From an uncultured Bacilli bacterium (GTDB lineage Bacteria; Bacillota_I; Bacilli_A; RF39; UBA660): a DNA stretch of 64,000 nucleotides. Made by a program: the position numbers and the translations under genes. The DNA is taken from the NCBI GenBank assembly GCA_947628895.1, contig CANRBS010000002.1, positions 2,818 to 66,817 of the forward strand, written 5' to 3'. Positions 8,287 through 61,118 of the stretch are shown one piece after another. The notes beneath the pieces were generated by a model. That model was not told where the DNA came from. It was given only the letters and a program-made list of their open reading frames with translations, and did not search any database. The number at the start of each line of letters is the position of its first letter. The stretch's first letter is position 1.

Positions 8287-9375
8287 TTATTTACTTTCTC
8301 CGAGTGTAACTTTAAATACTTTTGTTTCTTTTCCTCTAATAACTGTAATATCAACAGTTTCATTAGGTTCATGTTTATATAGATAATATCTAAGTTTAGC
8401 TACATTACTAACTTCAACATCACCTATTTTTGTTATTACATCTCCTTTTTGAATACCCGCGATAGCTGATGGACCATCAGTAGTAGATTCTAAAACTATT
8501 ACTCCTGAAGTTATTGAACTATCTAAATTTATACCCTCTTTAATTAAATAATATGATGGTGTTGATATATCAGCCATACTAATACCTAAATAAGCTCTTT
8601 TTATTTCTACTTTATTAACAATTTTATTAGCATAATCCATTGCATCTTCAATTGGAATTGCAAAACCTATTCCTTCTATTTCAGATTGTACTATTTTCAT
8701 TGAATTAATACCAATTACTTCTCCATTAACATTACAAAGAGGTCCACCACTATTTCCTGGATTAATTGCTGCATCTGTTTGCATAACATTCATAATCCAA
8801 TCATTTGAAGATGAATTAACTGATACTTCAACCATTCTATTTTTACCACTAAGTATTCCTCTTGTAACCGTACCATAATATTCAGAACTCATAGGAGATC
8901 CAATAGTAAATACAGTATCACCAAGTTTAGTTTTCTCACTACTTCCAATTTTAGCAATATTAGTAGCATATTCTTTATCTATTTGAATAACAGCAATATC
9001 TGCATACTCATCACTTCCTATTAAAGTTGCATCTAATGTATCACCATTCATTAATAAAACTTTAATTTCGCTTGCATTATCTATAACATGATGATTAGTC
9101 ATAATATATCCTTCATTACTATAAATAAAACCTGAACCTATACTTGCAAGTTTTGATTTTTGATAATTTTCAACTACTACAACTGAATCATATACATTTT
9201 CTATACCTTCTGAAATTCCACTATCAGTAACAGTAACATCTCTTATTACTTTATTTGTTACTTCTTTTTCATTTTCTTTATTAAAAGGTACATATAAAAT
9301 TACTGCATACATTATTCCCGCTCCTAATATTGCAGATAATATACCACTAAAAACATATGATAAAGCTTTTTTCAT
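8287..9375 (-). CDS. htrA: HtrA/DegP-family serine protease with PDZ domain
   Basis: TM anchor, trypsin-like domain with GNSGGPL, C-terminal PDZ (GIQKGDVITKIGD). Confidence 0.85.
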   Translation of the reverse strand: MKKALSYVFSGILSAILGAGIMYAVILYVPFNKENEKEVTNKVIRDVTVTDSGISEGIENVYDSVVVVENYQKSKLASIGSGFIYSNEGYIMTNHHVIDNASEIKVLLMNGDTLDATLIGSDEYADIAVIQIDKEYATNIAKIGSSEKTKLGDTVFTIGSPMSSEYYGTVTRGILSGKNRMVEVSVNSSSNDWIMNVMQTDAAINPGNSGGPLCNVNGEVIGINSMKIVQSEIEGIGFAIPIEDAMDYANKIVNKVEIKRAYLGISMADISTPSYYLIKEGINLDSSITSGVIVLESTTDGPSAIAGIQKGDVITKIGDVEVSNVAKLRYYLYKHEPNETVDITVIRGKETKVFKVTLGESK

Positions 9376-20158: not shown

Positions 20159-20187
20159 TTGACATTTTACGAGTTTTATGATATAAT
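20159..20187 (+). promoter_or_regulatory. Near-consensus sigma-A promoter
   Basis: TTGACA (20159-20164), a 17 nt spacer, then TGATATAAT with extended -10 (TATAAT at 20182-20187). Confidence 0.75.
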
Positions 20188-20193
20188 GTTATT

Positions 20194-20660
20194 CGTATGG
20201 AGCATTATGCTAGTCAACCATACCACTAGAAGATGGGGCTAAAAATCCATTAATTGTGCAAGAAGGTACTTTATATATTTTGCTTCTTTCGCCCAGATTG
20301 GGGTGGATATATAATTTAAGATTTAAGGAAAATATGCAATGGCATGTATATGAAATCCTTTTATCAATCCGTGAAGTGATGATATGCACATGTCGTGAGT
20401 GATTTGTTGGGATAATTATTTTGAAAAATAAATTGCAAAAGCGAATAAAAGTGTCATATGATTGTTTGGGAAAACCTCTAGTGTGTTCTTATTATAAAGA
20501 TTGAAGTGCGGACTAAGTGGTGATCGAGTGATCATACAAGGTAACTTATGATTAATATCTTTAAAAAGAAATTGCCTACAGGTAACTAAGGGTAGATATT
20601 AGAGAAATTCAACTCGACCAAAGCCGTAAAATTAATTTATAATAATCCATACAAAATTTC
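20194..20660 (+). ncRNA. Candidate large structured RNA / long 5' leader (OLE-like hypothesis)
   Basis: About 470 nt with no ORF and its own strong promoter. Visibly richer in G/C than other spacers. Has local hairpins (CCCAGATTGGGG, GATCGAGTGATC, CTACAGGTAACTAAGGGTAG). 5' GTATGG (20195-20200) can pair with CCATAC at 20647-20652. No terminator before the downstream CDS. Confidence 0.4.
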
Positions 20661-20679
20661 TAAAGGGAGTTTATTAAAA

Positions 20680-21204
20680 ATGAAGAAAGATAATTGGATC
20701 ATTAAAGCATTTTTAATGACTTTTTTTATAGCTATAATTTTTAATAGTATATCAAATGTCATTACAAATAAATGCGAAAATATTTTTATTTTAATATTAG
20801 TTGCGATTATATTTATTTTTATAGGTATAATTTTTGATATAATTGGTACTGCTGTATTAACTGCTAATGAATCTACATTTCACTCTATGAGTTCTAAAAA
20901 GATAAAAGGTTCTAAAGAAGGAGTTTATTTAATTAAAAACTCAAGTAGAATTGCTAGTGTATGTAATGATGTAATTGGAGATATATGTGGTATAGTTAGT
21001 GGTTCTGTTAGTGCTATTATTGGAATATATATTTCTAATTTATTTAATATTTCAACAATAATTACAACATTAGTAATAAGTTCAATAGTATCATCTCTTA
21101 CAGTTGGTGGTAAAGCTATTGGTAAAAAAATAGCTATTAAAAAAAGTGATGATATTATATTTAGAGTAGCTAAAATAATTTATAAATTTAAACTTAAAAA
21201 ATAG
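20680..21204 (+). CDS. Small 4-TM membrane protein resembling a stand-alone DUF21 (CNNM/CorB transmembrane) module; OapA-like candidate
   Basis: 174 aa with four TM helices. LTANESTFHSMSSKKIKGSKEGVYLIKNSSRIASVCNDVIGDI parallels the DUF21 S-E-T-A...loop...helix pattern. RBS AAAGGGAG. Confidence 0.4.
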   Translation: MKKDNWIIKAFLMTFFIAIIFNSISNVITNKCENIFILILVAIIFIFIGIIFDIIGTAVLTANESTFHSMSSKKIKGSKEGVYLIKNSSRIASVCNDVIGDICGIVSGSVSAIIGIYISNLFNISTIITTLVISSIVSSLTVGGKAIGKKIAIKKSDDIIFRVAKIIYKFKLKK

Positions 21205-24065: not shown

Positions 24066-24579
24066 TGAAATATTGGAAAAACCTTATATTAAAAATAAGA
24101 AAAGATTAATTAATATTTTAAAAGATGAAGATATTATTAAATTAATGAATAATATTGATAATAACTTAATAGATTGTGATAATAATATATTTAAGAGTAA
24201 TAAAATATCTAAATTAGAAATGTTTATATATAAAATTGATAATTATATTACTTATCTAAAAAAATATTTAAATATTAATTCAAATGAGCTTACATATATA
24301 ATAATTTTAACAATTAGTAGTAAAAAAAATGATTTTCTTTTTAATGAAAATATAGATAATTTAGATAATAATTATAAAGAATTATTTATGTATAAATATA
24401 ATATAAATATTGATTTTCTATCTCATTATATGTATATAAATAAAAGAAGTTTTGAAAGCTTAATTGATAATATGAATAAAAAGAAAAAAAGAGTATATAT
24501 TTATTTTGAAAATATAACTCCTGATAATACTAATTTTTTCATACCAATAATATGTTTTTTAGAAGATATTAATTATTAA
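24058..24579 (+). CDS. Hypothetical Asn/Ile/Lys-rich protein, translationally coupled to the HTH gene
   Basis: ATG at 24058 preceded by GGAGG, overlapping the stop of the upstream gene. No recognisable domain. Confidence 0.4.
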   Translation: MINEILEKPYIKNKKRLINILKDEDIIKLMNNIDNNLIDCDNNIFKSNKISKLEMFIYKIDNYITYLKKYLNINSNELTYIIILTISSKKNDFLFNENIDNLDNNYKELFMYKYNINIDFLSHYMYINKRSFESLIDNMNKKKKRVYIYFENITPDNTNFFIPIICFLEDINY

Positions 24580-25648
24580 CAAATACATCATACATATTTT
24601 TATAACAGAAAGTTACTCTCTTTGTACCTTTCTTTTTTTCTTTAATTAAATATCCACTTTCTACTAATTTATTTAAAACTTTATTAACTGAATTTATATG
24701 TAATTTGCATTCAGTTACTAAGTCACTCGTAGTAAATACTATCTTTTTAACTATTACTGGATATACTTTATATATGGTAGTTCCACCAATAGTACTCTTA
24801 AATTCTTCATAATCATGTTCATATATTTTATTTAATTTCTTAATTTTCTTAATGTTTATAGTACATTGTTCAATAATACATTCTAACATTGTTTTTATAA
24901 ATTTATTTATATCTTCTTCTACTTCTCCACTAAGAAGTGTAAAATATGTATTTTTTAAATTATCTAAGCTTTGAGATATAAATAATATTGGTGGTTCTTT
25001 TTTATATAGAGAATATTGAATTGGTATAAGGATTCTTCCTATTTTTCCATTTCCAGATACATATGGATGGATTTTTTCATATTGAAAATGAGTAATTATT
25101 GTTGATATAAAATTAGGATCTTTGTTATTATTTATATATTCAATCAAATTTTTCATTAAATCATTTACTTCTGTATACACTGGAGGTATAAATGAAATAC
25201 TAGACCCTGCTATGCCTGGCTTTAATAAATAATTTTGTATTTTTCTAAATTTTCCGCTACCTTTTGTTTTATTATCTTTTTTACAATTTTGAAATAATAT
25301 TTTATTTATTTTATTTAGAAGTTCAATATCAATATTTCCACTTGCGGCACCAGATATTCCTAATAAGAAAGCTTTTCTTAAATTATTAACTTGTATTACA
25401 TCATTACTTTCATTTAGATATGGTGTATGAAACATATACTCTTTATTTAATTTACTTCCGTCAAGTTTAAATGAATAATATGTATCATTAACGAATGCAC
25501 ATTCTAGAAATGATTTATAATCATATGACATACTTCTTAGAAATCCTTTATATTCTCCATATATTTCTTCAGTTTCACATAAAAGATTTAATAAATCATT
25601 TGACAAATTATATTCAACTGGTAATTTTTTTGCTTTATATGGTTCCAT
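24569..25648 (-). CDS. Fic-family protein with non-canonical active-site motif and C-terminal winged helix
   Basis: Fic core HPYVSGNGKIGR (canonical HxFx[D/E]GNGRxxR). C-terminal LNKLVESGYLIKEKKKGTKRVTF is wHTH-like. Confidence 0.7.
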   Translation of the reverse strand: MEPYKAKKLPVEYNLSNDLLNLLCETEEIYGEYKGFLRSMSYDYKSFLECAFVNDTYYSFKLDGSKLNKEYMFHTPYLNESNDVIQVNNLRKAFLLGISGAASGNIDIELLNKINKILFQNCKKDNKTKGSGKFRKIQNYLLKPGIAGSSISFIPPVYTEVNDLMKNLIEYINNNKDPNFISTIITHFQYEKIHPYVSGNGKIGRILIPIQYSLYKKEPPILFISQSLDNLKNTYFTLLSGEVEEDINKFIKTMLECIIEQCTINIKKIKKLNKIYEHDYEEFKSTIGGTTIYKVYPVIVKKIVFTTSDLVTECKLHINSVNKVLNKLVESGYLIKEKKKGTKRVTFCYKNMYDVFVNN

Positions 25649-26090: not shown

Positions 26091-26619
26091 TTATTCTCCT
26101 ATAATACACAAAAAGCAACCAGTCCTGATAAAACTTGATTGCTTTGAGTTTCCGAAAAACGATTATAATCATTTATATTAAAGGATTTCACTTTAATATA
26201 AATACTCCTAAATATTATCAGTATTTAGCATAATCCCTTATCATTTTGAGTTTAGCTTTCTCAACGATATATCATTTGTCCTTAGTAGATAAGTCTTCTA
26301 TATCTTAAATTAATAAGATTAATTTATTTCTTATAAATATTATTTTTTTATTACTATAACTATTTACATATAAATAATTAACAAGTTAATGCTAACTATA
26401 AACATATAAAATTCATTATAATATTTATATCTATAAGATAATAAATATTTATAGAATATTTTCACTATAGATAATATAATTTTTAAATATCATCAATCTA
26501 AATTAAATATTTAAATTTAATAAAGATATATAGATTTTAAATTTTTTATATTATCTCTATTGGACAAGTATATTGTATCAAGTATTTTTTATATTGTCAA
26601 CTACTTTTTTTAAAAAAAT

Positions 26620-26662
26620 TAAAAAAAGTAGAAATTTGTATATTTTTGACATTTTTTCTACT
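26620..26662 (-). terminator. Terminator hairpin overlapping the hydrogenase stop codon
   Basis: Reverse strand reads AGTAGAAA, a loop, TTTCTACT, then T7. The loop is long (about 20 nt). Confidence 0.45.
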
Positions 26663-28172
26663 TATTATTTAATAAATTACTTTTATCTGTATATGATGTA
26701 TGAAGAAGTTCAAAACTTTTTTCACTCATAGGATTTTTCAAATATTCTTTATACAATAACTTTATTTCTGCATTATCATGAGCACTTCTTACTGCTCTTT
26801 TTTTATCTATTTCAAATAAACCTTTACTTCTTTTTTCTCTATATTCATCAAGCTTTGGTATTTGACATAATGGTTGTCCACCTCCACCAATACAACCACC
26901 TTTACAATTCATAACTTCTATTAAATGAAATTGTTTATAATAATTATTTTCTAATATTTTTTCTAAATTTTCCATTTGTTGTACTACAGCAACTTTTACT
27001 TTATATTTACCTATTAGTATACTTGCTTCTTTTATTCCTTCAAATCCTTCTAATTCTTCAAATCTTAATTCATCTTTTGTTAAGTTTTTATTTGTTAAAA
27101 TTTTGTTTAAAGTTCTTAATATTGATTCACATACTCCACCAGATGAACCAAATATTACACCTGCTCCGCTACTTTCTCCCATTAATTGATCAAAATCTCT
27201 ATCTTCAAGTTCTGGTAATTTTATTTCTTCTTCTTTTAATAATAATTCAAGTTCACTTGCTGTTAAAACATGATCAATATTTAATGTATATTCACGAGCT
27301 TCCATCTTTTTAGCAGTACATGGTGTAATAGCAACTGTAACTATTTTTGATGGATCAAATCCTTTCTTTTCACAAAAATAACTCTTTATTATTGCACATT
27401 GCATACCAATAGGACTTTTACATGTAGATAAGTTGTCTAGAAGTTCTGGATGATATATTTCAGCATATTTTACCCATGCAGGACAACAACTAGTAAATTG
27501 TGGGAGTGCTTTTTTATTTTGTAATCTTTCAATAAATTCAGCTGCTTCTTCAAGCACAGTTAAGTCTGCTCCAAATGCTGTATCATATACGAAATCAAAT
27601 CCAAGTTGCTTTAATGCACTTACAAGTTTCTTTTCTGAATTTACACCTGGCTCTAATCCAAAACTTTCTCCAATTGAAACTCTTACAGCAGGCGAAATAA
27701 TAGCTACTACAATTTTTTCATTAGCATCTAATATTTCTTTTACTTCTTTGTATTCATATTTTGGAACTAAGGCTCCTGTTGGACAATTTAAAATACATTG
27801 ACCACATCCAATACATATTGGTTCTTTACATTTATTTAAATCATATCTTAAATTTACGATATTTTCACATGTTTTTTTACATTGACCACAATTTATACAT
27901 TTTTCAGGTATTCTTGTAATCGCGGTATTATATTCACTTATTCTTATACTTTTTTCTTCTTCTTTTTCATTTACAATTTTAGATGGCTTATTACTTTCAA
28001 TAGCATCTTCTATAACAGAATCAACAATTGCATCTATTTCATTTTCAGCTAGATTTTCATGAAACACTTCAAATGAATCCTTTAAAGCATTACATTTTGG
28101 ACAAACATAATCACTTTCTAATTCTTCTTTTGTTTCAATATATCCACAATTTTTACATACATAAGTCTTCAT
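26658..28172 (-). CDS. [FeFe] hydrogenase with N-terminal rubredoxin-like Zn-ribbon and 2x[4Fe-4S] domain
   Basis: H-cluster motifs FTSCCPAW, TPCTAKK, MNCKGGCIGGGGQP. Ferredoxin motifs CINCGQCKKTC and CIGCGQCILNCP. N-terminal CKNCG...CPKC. Confidence 0.9.
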   Translation of the reverse strand: MKTYVCKNCGYIETKEELESDYVCPKCNALKDSFEVFHENLAENEIDAIVDSVIEDAIESNKPSKIVNEKEEEKSIRISEYNTAITRIPEKCINCGQCKKTCENIVNLRYDLNKCKEPICIGCGQCILNCPTGALVPKYEYKEVKEILDANEKIVVAIISPAVRVSIGESFGLEPGVNSEKKLVSALKQLGFDFVYDTAFGADLTVLEEAAEFIERLQNKKALPQFTSCCPAWVKYAEIYHPELLDNLSTCKSPIGMQCAIIKSYFCEKKGFDPSKIVTVAITPCTAKKMEAREYTLNIDHVLTASELELLLKEEEIKLPELEDRDFDQLMGESSGAGVIFGSSGGVCESILRTLNKILTNKNLTKDELRFEELEGFEGIKEASILIGKYKVKVAVVQQMENLEKILENNYYKQFHLIEVMNCKGGCIGGGGQPLCQIPKLDEYREKRSKGLFEIDKKRAVRSAHDNAEIKLLYKEYLKNPMSEKSFELLHTSYTDKSNLLNNK

Positions 28173-33797: not shown

Positions 33798-34343
33798 TTA
33801 AAATATATTTTTAAATAAATCTACTATTTTAAATCTGTATTCTATATTTTTTTCTTCTTCTATTTTTTCATTATTAGTTTTATTACTTTTATTAATTTCT
33901 TCATAATCTAACATACATAAAGATGGATATAATATACAAAAATAATTATTACCTTTAGCATCTCCAATTTCAATTACAAGTGATTTATAAGTTCCTGCTG
34001 GATAAGTTTTTCCTCTATATTCTTTTTTAGGAAATTCATTTAATCCATAAGATATGTTATAAGTTTTATTATAATTATTTTTTTCAAATAAAGCATCAAT
34101 TTTATTTTCAATGTTATTTAAATTTGAATAAATATTTTTATTTGTTTCTTCTTTTGTACTAGTTTTATCAAAAAGTATTCCAGATAATTCATTAACTACT
34201 TTTTCTTTCATAATAATATCATTTGCAGAATTACTATTAGCTATTACTCTAAATCTAATAGAGTCTTCTGTTAAATTATATTCATTACTATTTATAAAAA
34301 TAATAAACAAAATAATACTTAAAATTAAAATTAATTTTTTCAT
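33798..34343 (-). CDS. spoIIR: Stage II sporulation protein R
   Basis: SIRFRVIANSNS, YPAGTYKSLVIEIGDAKGNNYFCILYPSLC match SpoIIR signature blocks. Confidence 0.8.
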   Translation of the reverse strand: MKKLILILSIILFIIFINSNEYNLTEDSIRFRVIANSNSANDIIMKEKVVNELSGILFDKTSTKEETNKNIYSNLNNIENKIDALFEKNNYNKTYNISYGLNEFPKKEYRGKTYPAGTYKSLVIEIGDAKGNNYFCILYPSLCMLDYEEINKSNKTNNEKIEEEKNIEYRFKIVDLFKNIF

Positions 34344-36227: not shown

Positions 36228-36674
36228 CTACATATCTATATCGTCTTCATACCCTTCATCTACGATAACTAAGTCTTTTAAATCATCCTCTTCTTTATCA
36301 TCATCCATGTCATCTATATCATCATAATAGTCTTTTTCTTCTTCAGTATCATCTTCATCATCTTTATCTTCTTCTACTATTTCATCATCAAGTTCATCTT
36401 CTATTTCTTTTATACTTATTTGAGCAGTATGATTTTCTCTTAAATCCCAATATCCTTTTTCTAGTTGAATAAATCTTTTTTCAGTTGCCATTAATGCAAA
36501 GAAATCACCCATTTGCTCTTCATAAGCTTTATCCCCTAAATTTAAAGTATCACATATTATTTTAAATATGTCAGTAATTTTCATCTTTTTTCCTTTTTCT
36601 TTTAAAATAATATATGCAATATCATCAAATGATAATGTTTCTAATTCTTCTTTTGATATTGTTTTAAATTTCAT
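36228..36674 (-). CDS. rpoE: RNA polymerase delta subunit
   Basis: N-terminal delta domain (LSFDDIAYIILKEKGKKMKITDIF...RFIQLEKGYWDLREN) plus a long poly-Asp/Glu tail. Confidence 0.85.
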   Translation of the reverse strand: MKFKTISKEELETLSFDDIAYIILKEKGKKMKITDIFKIICDTLNLGDKAYEEQMGDFFALMATEKRFIQLEKGYWDLRENHTAQISIKEIEDELDDEIVEEDKDDEDDTEEEKDYYDDIDDMDDDKEEDDLKDLVIVDEGYEDDIDM

Positions 36675-36791: not shown

Positions 36792-38711
36792 ATGAAGAAA
36801 ATTGTATTTATTATTAAAATATTTGTTTTATTATTTTTTATTACTATTATAGCTAGTTTAAGCTTTTATGTATATGCTTTTATCACACCTAAGTTTTCAA
36901 TTAATACTACTGATAACATTTCATATTATGATAAAAATGGTGATGATATATTTGAAAGTACTGATAGTAATTATGTAAAATTAGACGATATTAGTGATTA
37001 TGTAAAAGATGCTATAATCAGTATTGAAGATAAAAATTTTTATACTCATAATGGTTTTGATTTTATGAGAATATTAAAAGCTATATTTATAAATTTAATG
37101 AGTGGAGAAATTAAGCAAGGAGCATCTACTATATCTCAACAGTATGTAAAAAATTTATATTTAACTTTTGATAAAACTTGGAAAAGAAAAATGGAAGAAG
37201 CATTTTTAACTATTGAACTTGAAACTCATTATAGTAAAGATGAAATATTAGAAGGTTATTTAAATACAATTGATTATGGTGCTGGAAACTATGGAATTAA
37301 AAGTGCTAGTAAATATTATTTTAATAAAGAACCAAAAGATTTAACTATTGAAGAAGCTACAATACTAGTAGGTATTCCAAGAAGTCCTGCATATTATAAT
37401 CCAATTACCAATTATGATAATGCTAAAAAAAGACAAAAAGCCGTACTTGTGAGTATGTACAATAATGGTATTATTAAGAAAAATGAAATTGATGAAATAT
37501 ATAATAAAGAATTAAATTTTTATGGTAAATATGATAAAGCTGAATTATCAAGTATTTATTATTATAAAGATGCTATACTTAGTGAAATGGATAATATAAA
37601 AGAAATACCTGATACACTATTAGATATTGATGGACTTAAAATATATACAAATTTAGATGTTGATGTACAAAAATTATTAGAAAAAAATGTTAGTGACGAA
37701 ATGAGTGACACAACTTTACAAGTCGCATCAATTGTTGTAAAACCTGAAAATGGTAAAATTGTAGCATTAATTGGTGGTAAAGATTATTCCAAATCACAAT
37801 TTAATAGAGCTACTTCTTCACATAGACAAGTTGGCTCTACTATTAAACCTTTTTTATACTATTCTGCTTTAGAAAATGGTTTTACTCCTTCTTCTACATT
37901 TTTAAGTGAAAGAACTACATTTAATTTAGGAAATGAAACATATAGTCCTAAAAATGCTAATAATATTTATGCTAATAAAAATATTTCAATGCTTAGTGCT
38001 ATTGCTTATTCTGATAATATTTATGCAATGAAAACTCATTTGTTTTTAGGAACTGATATGCTTTCTAAAACTATGAAAAGAGTTAAAATTAATACAACCG
38101 TAGAAGAAAATGCATCTTCTGCTCTTGGAACTAGTGAAATTAATATTATAGATTATAGTAATGGATATATTACTCTTGCTAATGAAGGACAACATGAAAC
38201 ACCACATATAATTGAAAAAATAACTGATAATAAAGGTAATATTCTTTATGAATATAAATATAAAAATGAATATGTTTTAAATAAAAAATATGTATATATT
38301 TTAAACAACTTATTAACATCTACTTATGACTATAGTTTAGTTTCTTATACATCTCCTACACTAGTTAGTATTTCTAGTTTAATAGATGGAAAATATGCTA
38401 TTAAAAGTGGTAGTACTGCAACTGATTACTGGACTATTGGATATAATAAAGATTATTTAGTTATGGTATGGGCTGGTAATGATGATAATTCTAATGTTAA
38501 ATCAGGTGAATCTAAAATTACTAAAAGAATATGGGCAAATACTATAAACAACATAAAAGATAATAATAAAACCTGGTATGATATACCACCAGGTATTACA
38601 ATAGATACGATTGATCCAATTAGTGGAGAAGAAAAAATAAAAGGTTATTTATGTTATTATGAAAAGGGTAGTGAACCTAGTTATAATTATATTGAAAATA
38701 ATATAAATTAA
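36792..38711 (+). CDS. Class A penicillin-binding protein (glycosyltransferase + transpeptidase)
   Basis: GT51 motif EDKNFYTHNGFD. Transpeptidase motifs STIKP, YSDN, KSGST. N-terminal TM anchor. Confidence 0.9.
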   Translation: MKKIVFIIKIFVLLFFITIIASLSFYVYAFITPKFSINTTDNISYYDKNGDDIFESTDSNYVKLDDISDYVKDAIISIEDKNFYTHNGFDFMRILKAIFINLMSGEIKQGASTISQQYVKNLYLTFDKTWKRKMEEAFLTIELETHYSKDEILEGYLNTIDYGAGNYGIKSASKYYFNKEPKDLTIEEATILVGIPRSPAYYNPITNYDNAKKRQKAVLVSMYNNGIIKKNEIDEIYNKELNFYGKYDKAELSSIYYYKDAILSEMDNIKEIPDTLLDIDGLKIYTNLDVDVQKLLEKNVSDEMSDTTLQVASIVVKPENGKIVALIGGKDYSKSQFNRATSSHRQVGSTIKPFLYYSALENGFTPSSTFLSERTTFNLGNETYSPKNANNIYANKNISMLSAIAYSDNIYAMKTHLFLGTDMLSKTMKRVKINTTVEENASSALGTSEINIIDYSNGYITLANEGQHETPHIIEKITDNKGNILYEYKYKNEYVLNKKYVYILNNLLTSTYDYSLVSYTSPTLVSISSLIDGKYAIKSGSTATDYWTIGYNKDYLVMVWAGNDDNSNVKSGESKITKRIWANTINNIKDNNKTWYDIPPGITIDTIDPISGEEKIKGYLCYYEKGSEPSYNYIENNIN

Positions 38712-38716
38712 AAGTG

Positions 38717-39892
38717 CTAATCTCTAGCACTTTTATCAATTTCAATAACAATTTTATATTTATCAGGTAAATCCATTTCTTGTGTTGTTATAATATTTGC
38801 TTTATTTAAATCACTTACAAGTTCTCTTACTTTACTAATCATATTTGGTAAAGTAATTTTTTTATTTTCTTCTAATACATTATTTTGTTCTTCTATATCA
38901 TTATGATTTTCATCATTATATTCATCATGTTTTTCTGGCTCTTTATCACTAAAATTATATCTATCTTTCATAGCATTATTAATTATTTCATCATAATAAC
39001 TACTATCTTTTTGATTTTGAATTTGTTCATCTATTTTTCTAATATTATTTTCAAATTCTGTTTGATAAGGATTCAATGATTCTTCTTTTTGTTCTTCTTT
39101 ATTTTCTTCATGAATTTGATTTTCTTTTGGAATATCATTAGACATATCATCAATATTTACTACTTCTGGTTTATTTAATTCACTAATGTGATCTATTTTA
39201 TTTTCTGCACTTTCTGTTTCTTTTTGCATTTCTTGTTCTAAGAACTTCATTAATCCTACTGGAATATCATTATCTATAGTTGATTTATTTAAAAGTTTAC
39301 TTATTTCTTCTTCTGTTTGTCTTACAGTTAATCTTTCATTAACTATTCTATTTAATAATTCAACTTGTAAGTTTGAATCATTTAAAGATAATAAACTTCT
39401 TGCATGTCTTTCACTTATTTTATTATGTAATAAAGCATCTTGTACTTCTTTAGGTAAACTTAAAAGTCTTAATTTATTAGCTATTGATGATTGACTTACA
39501 CCAAGCTTTTTAGCAATTTCTTCTTGTGTATAATTTTTATCAATTAATTTTTTATAAGATTGAGCTTCTTCTATTACAGTTAAATTTTTTCTTTGTAAAT
39601 TTTCTAAAAGTGCTATTTCTGAACTAGTATTATCATCAGTATTTTTTATAATTGCTGGAACTGATTTTAGACCTGCTAAAAGAGAAGCTTTATATCTTCT
39701 TTCACCTGCAATTATTTCATATTTTGAACCTATATTTCTTAAAACTAATGGTTGAATAATACCATATCTTCTAATAGAATCAGCAAGACTATTTAATTCT
39801 TGTTCATCAAAAGCAAGTCTTGGTTGAAATCTATTTGGTATTATATCTTCAACTCTAACATTTATTATTTTTTCATTTTCTTCCATACTCAT
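38717..39892 (-). CDS. noc: ParB-family protein with Noc-type DNA-recognition residues (nucleoid occlusion protein-like), atypical N-terminus and long acidic insertion
   Basis: PNRFQPR and GERR ParB boxes. QSSIANKLRLL and KISERHARSLL match B. subtilis Noc (QSTIANKLRLL, KITERHARAL) rather than Spo0J (RPHIANHLRLL, LSMGHGRTLL). Sits next to rsmG as noc does in Bacillus. Confidence 0.75.
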   Translation of the reverse strand: MSMEENEKIINVRVEDIIPNRFQPRLAFDEQELNSLADSIRRYGIIQPLVLRNIGSKYEIIAGERRYKASLLAGLKSVPAIIKNTDDNTSSEIALLENLQRKNLTVIEEAQSYKKLIDKNYTQEEIAKKLGVSQSSIANKLRLLSLPKEVQDALLHNKISERHARSLLSLNDSNLQVELLNRIVNERLTVRQTEEEISKLLNKSTIDNDIPVGLMKFLEQEMQKETESAENKIDHISELNKPEVVNIDDMSNDIPKENQIHEENKEEQKEESLNPYQTEFENNIRKIDEQIQNQKDSSYYDEIINNAMKDRYNFSDKEPEKHDEYNDENHNDIEEQNNVLEENKKITLPNMISKVRELVSDLNKANIITTQEMDLPDKYKIVIEIDKSARD

Positions 39893-39996
39893 TACCCTTT
39901 TTACTTCTATAACAATTTTAATCTATTTTTGTAATTTTATCAAGTACCTATTTATGTTAATTTCTTATAATTTAAAAGATAACATTTAAGTTACCT

Positions 39997-40701
39997 TTAT
40001 TTTATACTTTCCTTTTTTATAATATTATAATTTCTTGGATACTTTAAATCTGTAGATTTATATTTTTTAAATACTAATAATGTTCTTTTTGAATTTTCTA
40101 TTGGTAATTCATAATCTATTTGACTATCTAATCTATAACTTAATTTATCTATGTTTTTCTCTGCAAATTTTAATTCTTCTAATGCATTTGCTTTCATTGG
40201 TATAAATTCTCCATTAATTTTTAATAATGAAGATGAAAGCTCTAATATAATATTTAAATTAGATACTGCTCTACAAGTGACTATATCAAATAATTCTCTA
40301 TTATTTTTACCATAATCTTCTACTCTTGTGTTTATTATTTCTACATTTTTTAGATTTAATTTATTTTTTACGGCTTCTAAAAATGTAACTTTTTTACTAT
40401 TTGATTCTATTAATGTAAAGTTTGAATTATCAAATATTATTGCAAGTACCATTCCTGGAAAACCTGCTCCTGTACCAAAATCACATATTTTTTTATTATT
40501 TAAATTAGTTGTTTTAACTAGACATAAACTATCATAAAAATGTTTTAAATAAATATCTTTTTCTTCAATAATTGTTGTTAAATTAAATTTTTGATTCCAC
40601 TTAATTAATAAATTTTTATATTCTTCTAAACCACTCAAATTTTTAGTAGTTAAATTTATTCCAAGAATACTACAATATTTTATAAACTCTTCTTTAGTCA
40701 T
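39997..40701 (-). CDS. rsmG: 16S rRNA m7G527 methyltransferase
   Basis: GidB family; DFGTGAGFPG SAM motif; follows mnmG. Confidence 0.9.
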   Translation of the reverse strand: MTKEEFIKYCSILGINLTTKNLSGLEEYKNLLIKWNQKFNLTTIIEEKDIYLKHFYDSLCLVKTTNLNNKKICDFGTGAGFPGMVLAIIFDNSNFTLIESNSKKVTFLEAVKNKLNLKNVEIINTRVEDYGKNNRELFDIVTCRAVSNLNIILELSSSLLKINGEFIPMKANALEELKFAEKNIDKLSYRLDSQIDYELPIENSKRTLLVFKKYKSTDLKYPRNYNIIKKESIK

Positions 40702-49338: not shown

Positions 49339-49803
49339 ATGGATTATGAAATCACATATGATACTCAAATAATATTACCAATTGATGAGAATTCTTCAAA
49401 AATCATAGAAAATGATAGTGAATATGTTATTAATAATAGTACATTAAATATCCTAGAACATAGTTGTGAATATTTTGGTAGTTCTTATGAAGGAAGAAAA
49501 GAAGGAACTAAAAAGTTATTAGGTATTACTCATAAATCACCAATCATAGTTGAAGAAAGTAGAAAAATAATATTTTTTCCAACAAGTTCACCAGAAAATA
49601 GTAATTGTATATGGATTAATTTAGAAAAAATAGAAAAATATTATAAAGTAAATTCTAAAAAATCTGCAATATTATTTAAAAATGGTGATGTAATAGAATT
49701 TGATGTTTCTTATGGTTCACTTACTAATCAAATATTAAGAGCAACAAGATTAAAATACATTCTAGAAGAGAGAATGACTAAAAAAGAAGATATTTTATTA
49801 TAA
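49339..49803 (+). CDS. comK: ComK-family competence transcription factor
   Basis: SCEYFGSSYEGRKEGTKKLLGITHKSPIIVEESRKIIFFPTSS parallels B. subtilis ComK SCRFFGSSYAGRKAGTYEVTKISHKPPIMVDPSNQIFLFPTLS. Confidence 0.75.
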   Translation: MDYEITYDTQIILPIDENSSKIIENDSEYVINNSTLNILEHSCEYFGSSYEGRKEGTKKLLGITHKSPIIVEESRKIIFFPTSSPENSNCIWINLEKIEKYYKVNSKKSAILFKNGDVIEFDVSYGSLTNQILRATRLKYILEERMTKKEDILL

Positions 49804-56740: not shown

Positions 56741-56810
56741 GTTACAACAGATAATAATGTGAATAAAAAAACTGATGAACAAGAAAATAACTAATTAAAA
56801 ATATAAAAAA

Positions 56811-56826
56811 TATTTCCCGGGAAATA
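56811..56826. promoter_or_regulatory. Noc-binding-site palindrome (NBS-1); may double as the gyrA terminator
   Basis: Exact TATTTCCCGGGAAATA inside the 26 bp palindrome AAAAATATTTCCCGGGAAATATTTTT, followed by a T-run. Confidence 0.7.
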
Positions 56827-56863
56827 TTTTTTATTTTATCTGAACAAAAATTAATGTGAAAAT

Positions 56864-56879
56864 TATTTCCCGGGAAATA
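56864..56879. promoter_or_regulatory. Noc-binding-site palindrome (NBS-2)
   Basis: Exact TATTTCCCGGGAAATA inside AAAATTATTTCCCGGGAAATAATTTT. Confidence 0.7.
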
Positions 56880-56991
56880 ATTTTTGTGAAGCTAGAATTT
56901 AAAATAAAAATAATTTTGTATTTCTAATGTGAAAATTCAATTGTGAAAATTGTGAAATTTTTAGTAATTAATGTAAAAATATATATGAAAT

Positions 56992-57007
56992 TATTTCCCG
57001 GGAAATA
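56992..57007. promoter_or_regulatory. Noc-binding-site palindrome (NBS-3)
   Basis: Exact TATTTCCCGGGAAATA inside the 28 bp palindrome TGAAATTATTTCCCGGGAAATAATTTCA. Confidence 0.7.
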
Positions 57008-57205
57008 ATTTCACAATAAAAAGTAATAGTTTTTATTGTGAAATTTGTAAAAATTTAATTAAGTCATACAGTGATAGATACATTGTATTATTTATTATAA
57101 ATATAGTGTGAGATTATTAAATTGTGTAAAGTAAAATTTATAATAATTCTTTATTTTAAATTTATACAAATAAAAATATTAAAATTCAGTAAACAAAAGT
57201 GAAAT

Positions 57206-57221
57206 TATTTCCCGGGAAATA
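57206..57221. promoter_or_regulatory. Noc-binding-site palindrome (NBS-4)
   Basis: Exact TATTTCCCGGGAAATA inside the same 28 bp palindrome as NBS-3. Confidence 0.7.
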
Positions 57222-57294
57222 ATTTCAAAGCAAACATTTTATAAAAAAATATATTTCATACTTTTATGATTTATTATTTTAAAAATATTTGTTT

Positions 57295-57310
57295 TGTTTC
57301 ACGTGAAACA
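57295..57310. promoter_or_regulatory. parS site 1
   Basis: Exact TGTTTCACGTGAAACA, the perfect palindromic form of the B. subtilis parS consensus TGTTNCACGTGAAACA. Confidence 0.85.
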
Positions 57311-57477
57311 TTTATATAAAATTAAAAATTGTTCTAAAATTTTAAATAATTACAATAAATAGTAAATAAATTAAGTAATATAATCAATATAATTAATAAA
57401 TTTAATTAGTATTATATTGATATAGTAATTATTAATATAGTAAAATTTTAATAAAAAATATAAAGAAATGTAAAAAT

Positions 57478-57493
57478 TATTTCCCGGGAAATA
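57478..57493. promoter_or_regulatory. Noc-binding-site palindrome (NBS-5)
   Basis: Exact TATTTCCCGGGAAATA inside AAAATTATTTCCCGGGAAATAATTTT. Confidence 0.7.
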
Positions 57494-57530
57494 ATTTTCA
57501 ATAAACACAAAATTCAAACAGTAAAAATAA

Positions 57531-57559
57531 TTGATATTAAAATTAATTTATAGTATAAT
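57531..57559 (+). promoter_or_regulatory. SRP RNA promoter
   Basis: TTGATA (57531-57536), a 17 nt spacer, then TATAAT (57554-57559). Confidence 0.7.
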
Positions 57560-57564
57560 TTATT

Positions 57565-57643
57565 TGTGCAACAAGTCTAATATGAAACAGGTCAGAATTG
57601 GAAAATAGCAGCCTTAAGTATGAAACTTGTGTGCACATTTTTT
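57565..57643 (+). ncRNA. ffs: Small (4.5S-type) signal recognition particle RNA
   Basis: CAGGUCAGAAUUGGAAAAUAGCAGCC aligns with the E. coli 4.5S domain IV CAGGUCAGGUCCGGAAGGAAGCAGCC, with compensatory AUU/AAU in place of UCC/GGA around the GGAA loop. A 12 bp closing helix TGTGCAACAAGT/ACTTGTGTGCACA is followed by a T-run. In B. subtilis the SRP RNA gene (scr) lies between tadA and dnaX; here ffs lies just upstream of tadA, so the neighbourhood matches but the order differs. Confidence 0.85.
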
Positions 57644-57658
57644 ATTGAAATTAAATTT

Positions 57659-57674
57659 TGTTTCACGTGAAACA
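57659..57674. promoter_or_regulatory. parS site 2
   Basis: Exact TGTTTCACGTGAAACA with the same flanks (TTTTG...TTTATA) as parS site 1. Confidence 0.85.
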
Positions 57675-57706
57675 TTTATAAAACTTTACAAGTAAATGTG
57701 AAAAAT

Positions 57707-57722
57707 TATTTCCCGGGAAATA
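57707..57722. promoter_or_regulatory. Noc-binding-site palindrome (NBS-6)
   Basis: Exact TATTTCCCGGGAAATA; the copy of NBS-2 within direct repeat B. Confidence 0.7.
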
Positions 57723-57834
57723 ATTTTTGTGAAGCTAGAATTTAAAATAAAAATAATTTTATATTTCTAATGTGAAAATTCAATTGTGAAAATTGTGAAA
57801 TTTTTAGTAATTAATGTAAAAATATATATGAAAT

Positions 57835-57850
57835 TATTTCCCGGGAAATA
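57835..57850. promoter_or_regulatory. Noc-binding-site palindrome (NBS-7)
   Basis: Exact TATTTCCCGGGAAATA; the copy of NBS-3 within direct repeat B, 20 bp before the tadA start. Confidence 0.7.
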
Positions 57851-57870
57851 ATTTCACAATAAAAAGGTAG

Positions 57871-60941: not shown

Positions 60942-61118
60942 ATGATTATTAGTATTTTAAAGAAAATAGTTTGGTCACTATGCCTACTATATACTGTTAA
61001 TATAGTAATAAGCACCAAAGGTAAAATAATACCAATAAATCCTTATACAATATTTATTATATATTTCTTTGACTTTTTTGGAATAATAGCTATAATATAT
61101 TTGAAATATTATTGTTAA
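60942..61118 (+). CDS. bofA: BofA-like pro-sigma-K processing inhibitor (short, 58 aa)
   Basis: Below the ORF-track cutoff. MIISILKKIVWSLCLLYTVNIVISTKGKIIPINPYTIFIIYFFDFFGIIAIIYLKYYC parallels BofA (..VCVNMFGGSLGIHVPINLVTT..GIPGIAALVVIK). Lies downstream of recR as in B. subtilis. RBS AAGGAG. Confidence 0.55.
   Translation: MIISILKKIVWSLCLLYTVNIVISTKGKIIPINPYTIFIIYFFDFFGIIAIIYLKYYC

Follow-up and report, generated by a model that had tools for sequence, protein, structure and literature searches.

The stretch of DNA analysed here, hereafter the window, comprises 64 kb from the genome of an uncultured Bacilli bacterium and carries a single ParB-family gene, the open reading frame (ORF) 38717..39892 on the minus strand, whose product we refer to as the noc-like protein. 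That the window holds no second gene of this family, as a preliminary description made from the letters alone had stated, was borne out by the ORF list, by tblastn and by a six-frame scan that returned one GERR box and one ENLQR box. Near the replication origin, in the gap between gyrA and a tadA-like gene, the window further contains an array of perfect Noc-binding sites (NBS) and parS sites. As argued below, with moderate confidence we consider the noc-like protein to be the Noc orthologue of its clade in a derived form, a clamp that would be loaded at NBS, that lacks the membrane anchor and that would act at an origin-proximal array beside parS. The gene and its parts are arranged as follows.

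38717..39892, minus strand: Noc-type ParB-family gene (391 aa in the ORF list; probable start at 39886, giving 389 aa)
39593..39871, minus strand: N-terminal CTP-binding domain, residues 8-100 (Pfam; motifs PNRFQPR, GERRYKA and ENLQRKNL)
39293..39589, minus strand: DNA-binding domain, residues 102-200 (Pfam HTH_ParB; superposition on 6y93; residue census)
38852..39286, minus strand: acidic linker of ~145 residues, ~201-345 (composition, alignment, AlphaFold)
38720..38851, minus strand: Noc-like C-terminal domain of one helix and a beta-hairpin (AlphaFold helix 346-363, strands 366-372 and 377-383; conserved in the alignment)

Pfam assigns a ParB_N domain to residues 8-100 and HTH_ParB to residues 102-200, and the motifs for binding of cytidine triphosphate (CTP), PNRFQPR, GERR and ENLQR, are invariant in the alignment of the protein with its relatives. 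The sequence thus strongly indicates a dimeric ParB-family protein in which these motifs are intact. Among proteins of solved structure, Noc from G. thermoleovorans and B. subtilis matched with 207, 205 and 182 bits, versus 165 and 162 bits for Spo0J. The AlphaFold model has a mean predicted local distance difference test score (pLDDT) of 70.7, with residues 1-200 mostly above 80. In Foldseek its top structural matches were Noc proteins, and its DNA-binding domain superimposes on that of the Noc-NBS complex 6y93 with TM-scores of 0.89-0.91 and a root mean square deviation of 1.4-1.7. Over 205 aligned columns the family has a mean identity of 47% to Noc and 40% to ParB; all 100 bootstraps of a neighbour-joining analysis recover it as monophyletic, and in the observed tree it sits with Noc.

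The recognition helices read QSSIANKLRLLSLP and KISERHARSLL, just as they had been quoted in the preliminary description. Residues Q134, K140, S145 and R162 (391-aa numbering) occupy the specificity positions 173, 179, 184 and 201, so that the signature Q-K-S-R is to be compared with Q-K-K-R in Noc and R-x-x-G in ParB. In a census of 388 family members the equivalents of Q173 and R201 are invariant and K179 is nearly so; the R173/G201 pair of ParB is replaced by glutamine and arginine throughout. Work on Noc assigned the reading of NBS adenine 1 to Q173 and that of cytosine 6 to R201, and for the permissive residue one lysine, at 179 or at 184, was enough (Jalal et al. 2020, PMC7383237). Because one such lysine suffices, NBS binding is still predicted in spite of the serine at position 184, and with Q173 and R201 as readers and K179 as the permissive residue the noc-like protein is very likely to recognise the NBS palindrome of 14/16 bp. 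The NBS specificity that had been proposed earlier is in this way supported by the residue census together with seven perfect NBS in the window. Of the four positions that had been suggested for scoring, 173, 179 and 201 are Noc-like and 184, with S or N instead of K, is not, and the specificity residues do not side with Spo0J.

The sites themselves are found in a single intergenic region.

56812..57849, no strand assigned: composite NBS/parS array in the gyrA-tadA gap (pattern searches with shuffles)
57555..57652, plus strand: small signal recognition particle (SRP) RNA gene inside the array (Rfam RF00169, 55.6 bits)

Seven perfect NBS (ATTTCCCGGGAAAT) are located at 56812, 56865, 56993, 57207, 57479, 57708 and 57836, and two perfect parS at 57295 and 57659 are interleaved with them, about 17.5 kb from the noc-like gene. 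With up to two mismatches allowed, shuffled sequences are expected to yield 0.12 NBS and 0.06 parS. All nine sites fall within the 1.1-kb gap between gyrA and the tadA-like gene (56741-57870), 8.9 kb from dnaA, and no further NBS or parS, even with two mismatches, exists elsewhere in the window. The predicted target of the noc-like protein is thus present in a centromere-like cluster. The preliminary description had reported perfect parS at a distance of 18 kb, which is close to the value found here, and had overlooked the seven NBS. Six of the NBS share a 24-bp palindrome, two are carried by a 165-nt duplication of 99% identity, and the gap also contains many isolated GTGAAA(A)TT repeats that resemble half-sites. 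The SRP RNA gene has an NBS ~75 bp upstream and a parS directly downstream, and another NBS abuts the start of tadA. Among the four closest genomes, whose gaps were aligned, the site positions around the SRP RNA gene are kept, and the AT-rich flanks have diverged.

The dnaX locus was taken from 57 species genomes, of which 48 represent related low-GC Bacilli and 30, with 619 kb of sequence, the nearer clade. In these 30 loci, 50 of 51 NBS and all 110 parS cores are located in the gyrA-dnaX gaps, which make up 6% of the sequence, and of the 48 relatives 47 have their sites in this same gap. Where the relationship is more distant (DnaX ~40% identical), the gap contains only parS, in up to 11 copies, with single NBS elsewhere. 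In the more than 170 sites taken together, the two diagnostic positions change in strict concert: every half-site is either pure parS (G..A) or pure NBS (A..C). Hybrid or degenerate sites, considered as a mark of dual specificity or decay, were found at none of the loci. Within 10 kb of the noc-like gene the relatives contain neither NBS nor parS. Of the two possibilities named in the preliminary description, a canonical ParB encoded elsewhere or a broader or different role of this protein, the two unmixed classes of sites favour the former, a separate, parS-specific ParB, and we infer that the interleaved parS are read by a canonical ParB encoded outside the window. Note that several of the distant relatives carry tandem parS in the same gap, at 8948-9284 in locus L045, 6171-6282 in L040 and 33-282 in L043, as well as in L052 and L053. 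In L045 ten TGTTCCACGTGAAACA sites follow each other at a spacing of 37-38 bp, and in L052 and L053 six perfect sites at ~100-170 bp; such arrays are unusually plasmid-like for a chromosome.

At the N-terminus, the counterpart of residue 4 of the noc-like protein is residue 23 in Noc of G. thermoleovorans, and the Noc profile TIGR04285 starts at residue 29 in B. subtilis Noc and at residue 6-8 here; from these shifted starts some 22 N-terminal residues are missing with respect to Noc. The first 11 residues are acidic and non-amphipathic, with a hydrophobic moment of 0.12 and a net charge of -1, compared with 0.43 and +2 for the membrane-targeting sequence of B. subtilis Noc. This part of Noc comprises the membrane-targeting helix alpha1 (residues 1-10) and helix alpha2, and Noc function needs membrane recruitment through the helix (PMC8429893). 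The sequence supports a noc-like protein that is devoid of both helices. An in-frame TAA stands 10 codons before the first ATG of the ORF, and the stretch between the two contains no ATG, GTG or TTG; an upstream start that would add an N-terminal helix is thereby ruled out. The start is even likelier to lie at the second ATG (39886), because an AGGG Shine-Dalgarno sequence stands 8 nt 5' of it and homologues all begin with MEE or MNE, as does its product (MEENEK...). The true product therefore probably has 389 aa, and in this form it is identical to the database protein P0001. An N-terminus about 20 aa shorter than in Noc and without the membrane helix had already been described. Alignment, in-frame stop and low hydrophobic moment all agree with this; the stop, placed there at 11 codons, lies at 10. 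As for the structure prediction that had been recommended, the model matches Noc first, and it is by the hydrophobic moment that no amphipathic helix is seen at the N-terminus.

The second departure concerns the linker between the DNA-binding and C-terminal domains, which consists of 18% E, 14% N, 10% K and 10% D and carries a net charge of -23. In an alignment of 42 relatives its motifs DIPxx[IL]x[KR]F[LI], PEVV, INPFQ and YYDxIIN are invariant or nearly so, with the P and Q of INPFQ strictly invariant. AlphaFold predicts it mostly at pLDDT below 50, apart from a helix at 273-293 with a pLDDT of ~78, which is acidic and unlike membrane-binding helices, and a weakly predicted helix at 210-226 that covers the first of the motifs. 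Judged by its sequence, what had been taken for an insertion of about 130 low-complexity residues is a linker between domains that has expanded and in which short motifs are conserved, not mere filler: the long acidic stretch is real and slightly longer, and pure low complexity is at odds with the invariant motifs and the helix. Once the linker is removed in silico, the Noc hidden Markov model (HMM) aligns from end to end (profile 1-255), in contrast to the B. subtilis Spo0J control that ends at 214, and the C-terminal domain is thus Noc-like, as had been proposed.

These features are not peculiar to one genome. An exhaustive homologue search covered 1.84 billion cluster representatives (clusters at 50% identity), and the best 150 matches were examined. 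All 150 clusters align from the first few residues, their N-terminus being short and their linker long and very variable, and all are without a Noc-like N-terminal extension. A few representatives have apparent extensions of 10-13 residues; these share no motif and are probably starts called too far upstream. More than 120 close clusters, 52-92% identical, come from human, rabbit and ruminant gut assemblies; their label, where there is one, is 'ParB/RepB/Spo0J family partition protein', assigned to 'Tenericutes' or 'Bacilli' metagenome-assembled genomes (MAGs); a more distant subfamily includes MAGs labelled Acholeplasma. The length of family members ranges from 227 to 775 aa and that of the linker varies widely, up to more than 500 residues; many database entries are truncated and end inside it. 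In many members (P0302, P0207, P0269 and others) the linker is made of Pro/Thr/Glu/Val-rich tandem repeats. Its motifs differ between subfamilies, the distant ones sharing PGFMDIDxIQxEAxDI and [GN]KFF. The preliminary description had presented the architecture as unusual. It is not confined to one genome: a short N-terminus with a long linker is the norm across a very large family of uncultured low-GC Bacilli.

The surroundings of the gene are likewise those of noc in Bacillus in part.

39997..40701, minus strand: rsmG (gidB), directly upstream as with noc in Bacillus (ORF; Pfam GidB at the same position in relatives)
39915..39943, minus strand: promoter-like site in the region between rsmG and the noc-like gene (consensus scan, 10/12 matches)
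38709..38735, no strand assigned: hairpin terminator, shared with the convergent penicillin-binding protein (PBP) gene (1 terminator-like site versus 0.1 expected)

A gap of 104 nt separates rsmG from the ORF, and promoter-like sites in it are no more numerous than in shuffled sequences, which makes them weak evidence. The terminator overlaps the last codons (SARD) and the stop codon of the noc-like gene, downstream of which the PBP gene converges on it. Neither soj nor spo0J is a neighbour or occurs anywhere in the window. The earlier account of this neighbourhood, with rsmG before the gene, a PBP gene on the opposite strand behind it and soj and spo0J absent, is confirmed. The place after rsmG and the lack of soj-spo0J are shared by the relatives, in which the order dnaA, then rpmH-rnpA-yidC-jag-mnmE-mnmG-rsmG and the noc-like gene is kept and soj-spo0J never follows. 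Several relatives have a further gene, absent from the window, that separates the noc-like gene from the PBP gene converging on it (11296-12441 in L003 and L004, 11174-12364 in L005, 11213-12109 in L001); its product is either a protein of 381-396 aa with a Band_7_1/SPFH domain or one of 298 aa without Pfam match.

The separate ParB was searched for in several ways. A six-frame scan for a ParA-type Walker A motif was negative in the window and in the clade loci. In tblastn with the B. subtilis Soj and Spo0J sequences, only the noc-like gene matched in the window and nothing further in the clade loci; the only Soj matches among all fetched loci belong to two unrelated cyanobacterial ones. The right end of the window is followed by rsmI-pth-mfd-spoVT, and the look-up past the left end gave short contigs only. 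The LG(R/K)GL peptide for ParA contact is absent from the N-terminus of the noc-like protein, and canonical ParBs of other AT-rich lineages keep it. Scanning metagenome DNA with a pattern for AT-rich canonical ParB (GERRxRA...ENxQR) produced 120 loci, none of those fetched being from the clade of the window. A canonical soj-parB pair does exist in another very AT-rich gut lineage, between rplM-rpsI and ychF-rpsF-ssb-rpsR. This lineage is distant (ribosomal proteins 67% identical to those of the window), and soj-parB pairs located away from noc in it count in favour of a separate ParB. It represents a very prevalent human-gut species (L068, 935-2588; L188, 9226-10879) whose pair is situated away from rsmG, and its ParB, found on contigs of up to 1.3 Mb, has the recognition helix HITNILGLLKLP with GLL for the usual RLL. 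Among the listed matches of the last protein search for canonical ParB, copies from this species at ≥98% identity were dominant.

Taken by analogy with its relatives of known function, the noc-like protein would load at NBS, close into a CTP-bound sliding clamp and spread on the neighbouring DNA. The clamp should coat the origin-proximal region and not the whole chromosome, because the loading sites, all of those in the window and nearly all in ~620 kb from relatives, are confined to one gap of ~1 kb. As the N-terminal amphipathic helix is missing, the protein alone would not be able to bring DNA to the membrane, which is how Noc blocks division over the nucleoid. For the long acidic linker we consider it most likely that it attracts a partner protein or else surrounds the origin as a bulky, charged brush; conserved short motifs within a mostly disordered region point to such a partner. 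One may go further and propose that in this large clade of gut Bacilli Noc no longer serves as a membrane tether acting genome-wide but has become a second complex of the centromere type close to the origin, an anchor-less clamp at an NBS array among parS whose linker motifs couple the origin to a cellular machine such as divisome, replisome or SMC, alongside ParB or, should there be no ParB, instead of it, but this extension is speculative and we think it unlikely.

Several observations weigh against assigning the protein to Noc in this manner. CTP binding, clamping and spreading are ascribed to it by analogy only. The split that unites the family with Noc has a bootstrap value of just 46%. 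Position 184, nearly invariant as lysine in Noc, is serine here and usually N or S in the relatives. The TIGR04285 score of 265.8 bits, or 276.7 bits with the linker removed, stays below the cutoff of 315; in the controls B. subtilis Noc reached 373.3 bits, and B. subtilis Spo0J, with 256.6 bits, came close to the noc-like protein. As Spo0J scores this high, the score of the noc-like protein does not tell Noc from ParB, and the profile was rejected for that purpose. NBS were counted within ~64 kb per genome, so that the restriction to the origin is not a genome-wide statement. Finally, neither a second ParB nor a ParA turned up in the window, in the 7 kb past its right end or in any fetched clade locus, and the interval of the window that is syntenic to the soj-parB region of the other lineage (rplM-rpsI to ssb, ~11.3-17.7 kb) contains other genes.

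This last point could mean that the noc-like protein is the sole ParB-family protein of the cell, a dual-specificity or re-purposed Noc that reads NBS as well as parS and replaced Spo0J after the loss of soj-spo0J. Such a history would account for the absence of soj, spo0J and a ParA Walker A motif from the 64-kb origin region, from beyond its right end and from the vicinity of the gene in relatives, for a rplM-rpsI to ssb interval that, unlike the one of another AT-rich lineage, is free of soj-parB, for NBS and parS interleaved as in one centromere, and for the departure from Noc at position 184. However, Q173 and R201 are the residues that read A1 and C6, and dual-specificity variants mostly have T or S at position 201, not R (PMC7383237). 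The more than 170 sites, without hybrids or mixed halves, are what two separate readers predict, and the ParA-contact peptide is missing. A single dual reader is therefore disfavoured with respect to a separate ParB, and we regard it as quite unlikely. A different possibility is that classical nucleoid occlusion was kept and that the contact to membrane or divisome shifted to a linker motif, DIPxx[IL]x[KR]F[LI] or NPFQ/NKFF, which binds a membrane-associated partner. Invariant short motifs in an otherwise freely drifting linker and the weak helix predicted at 210-226 over the first of them would fit this, and losing the helix without a replacement would abolish Noc function, for which membrane recruitment is needed (PMC8429893). 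The linker motifs nevertheless vary between subfamilies, the helix at 273-293 is acidic and unlike those that bind membranes, and NBS at one origin-proximal spot, unlike the dispersed NBS of Bacillus, cannot mark the bulk of the nucleoid. The first motif also loosely resembles the C-terminal peptide of FtsZ, DIPxFLR, which it might mimic. On balance we would not expect this explanation to be correct.

The position of the sites further invites the idea of a local regulator, a DNA-loaded clamp in the manner of KorB that acts on the SRP RNA gene, tadA, dnaX or the firing of the oriC close by. Transcription is repressed by KorB, itself a clamp of the ParB family, and S. aureus Noc is reported to restrain replication initiation (Pang et al. 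2017); besides these precedents, KorB is among the sequence and structure matches of the noc-like protein, NBS precede the SRP RNA gene by ~75 bp and adjoin the tadA start, and the array is 8.9 kb from dnaA. On the other hand, there is no gene for a repressor partner or a KorA-like protein nearby, and distant relatives have parS arrays without NBS in the same gap, which for this reason is primarily a centromere region and not a promoter-specific operator. This role seems very unlikely to us.

Returning to the noc-like protein as a derived Noc, its resemblance to Noc of B. subtilis and G. thermoleovorans (TIGR04285; PDB entries 7nfu, 7ol9 and 6y93) comprises the ParB_N and helix-turn-helix fold with PNRFQPR, GERR and ENLQR, residues Q173, K179 and R201, the gene position directly after rsmG near oriC, perfect NBS in the genome, a short C-terminal domain without the last helix of ParB, and 46-53% identity over 200 residues. 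Its working would be closest to that of Noc or ParB, but two defining features of Noc, the membrane-targeting helix and a score above the TIGR04285 cutoff, are absent. It differs from Noc in the missing helices alpha1 and alpha2 (~22 residues), in S or N at position 184, in the score below the TIGR04285 cutoff, in a linker of ~145 residues (more than 500 in relatives) where Noc has ~15-20 basic ones, in NBS that, within the 64-kb window and ~620 kb from relatives, are clustered with parS in one origin-proximal gap, those of Noc being spread along the chromosome outside the terminus, and in soj-spo0J not being adjacent. With ParB/Spo0J (TIGR00180; PDB entries 6sdk, 1vz0 and 6t1f) it shares the fold, the CTP motifs, probably a CTP-gated sliding clamp and a centromere-like cluster of cognate sites near the origin, the last being a likeness in possible working and not in family membership. 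Unlike ParB it has Q and R for the invariant R173 and G201, so that parS binding is not predicted, its identity is 40-45%, there is no LG(R/K)GL peptide and no ParA gene nearby, and its C-terminal domain ends before the final helix. KorB of plasmid RK2 (PDB entries 8qa8 and 8qa9) is a ParB-family CTP clamp whose job is other than ParA-driven partition and which illustrates that the fold can be re-purposed; its identity is only 26-28%, it is plasmid-borne, recognises another operator and works together with KorA, and a regulatory role here would be by analogy.

Beyond the noc-like gene and its sites, the window contains a full-length OLE (ornate large extremophilic) RNA (215 bits; 20181-20666, plus strand) in what is a gut bacterium with 23% GC, and directly after it the gene for a small membrane protein (20680-21204, plus strand) with a weak match to CNNM-type transmembrane domains (25.8 bits; Pfam cut-off 28.4) that is possibly the usual OapA-like partner of this RNA. 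A PGK RNA motif (RF03040, 84 bits; 26208-26300, minus strand) is located ~360 nt downstream of an [FeFe]-hydrogenase gene on the same strand (26658..28172) and upstream of a Fic-domain gene (24569..25648). A 148-aa protein (36228-36674, minus strand) combines a HARE-HTH-like N-terminal part with a D/E tail that is strongly acidic, which by our own reading and a weak Pfam match in relatives presumably makes it similar to the delta subunit of RNA polymerase (RpoE). In the dnaA-dnaN-recF-gyrB-gyrA block, which is classical in all other respects, a ComK homologue (49339-49803, plus strand) is inserted between dnaN and recF, as in L005 and L067. Sporulation-type genes for SpoIID, SpoIIR, BofA and SpoVT are present together with class A PBPs (1546-2511, 33798-34343 and 60942-61118 in the window; 5588-6082 in L063), and the genomes labelled 'Tenericutes' or 'Mollicutes' that contain them belong to Bacilli that are walled and possibly spore-forming.

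A literature search on anchor-less Noc or NBS arrays beside parS, including Mollicutes- and Erysipelotrichia-like bacteria, returned nothing relevant, and generic database labels as 'ParB/RepB/Spo0J partition proteins' hide the class that is described here. A whole radiation appears to have kept an NBS-specific Noc, dropped its membrane helix, expanded its linker and gathered the NBS beside parS at the origin. Noc that is NBS-specific and helix-less across a radiation would imply at least one further mode of action for this protein. The paralogous ParB-family clamps that would share one loading zone without cross-talk constitute a natural experiment, and with sites, protein and linker motifs all defined the system is open to testing. 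It bears on how the origin is organised and the division site placed in gut Bacilli with reduced genomes in which peptidoglycan is still made and sporulation genes are present.

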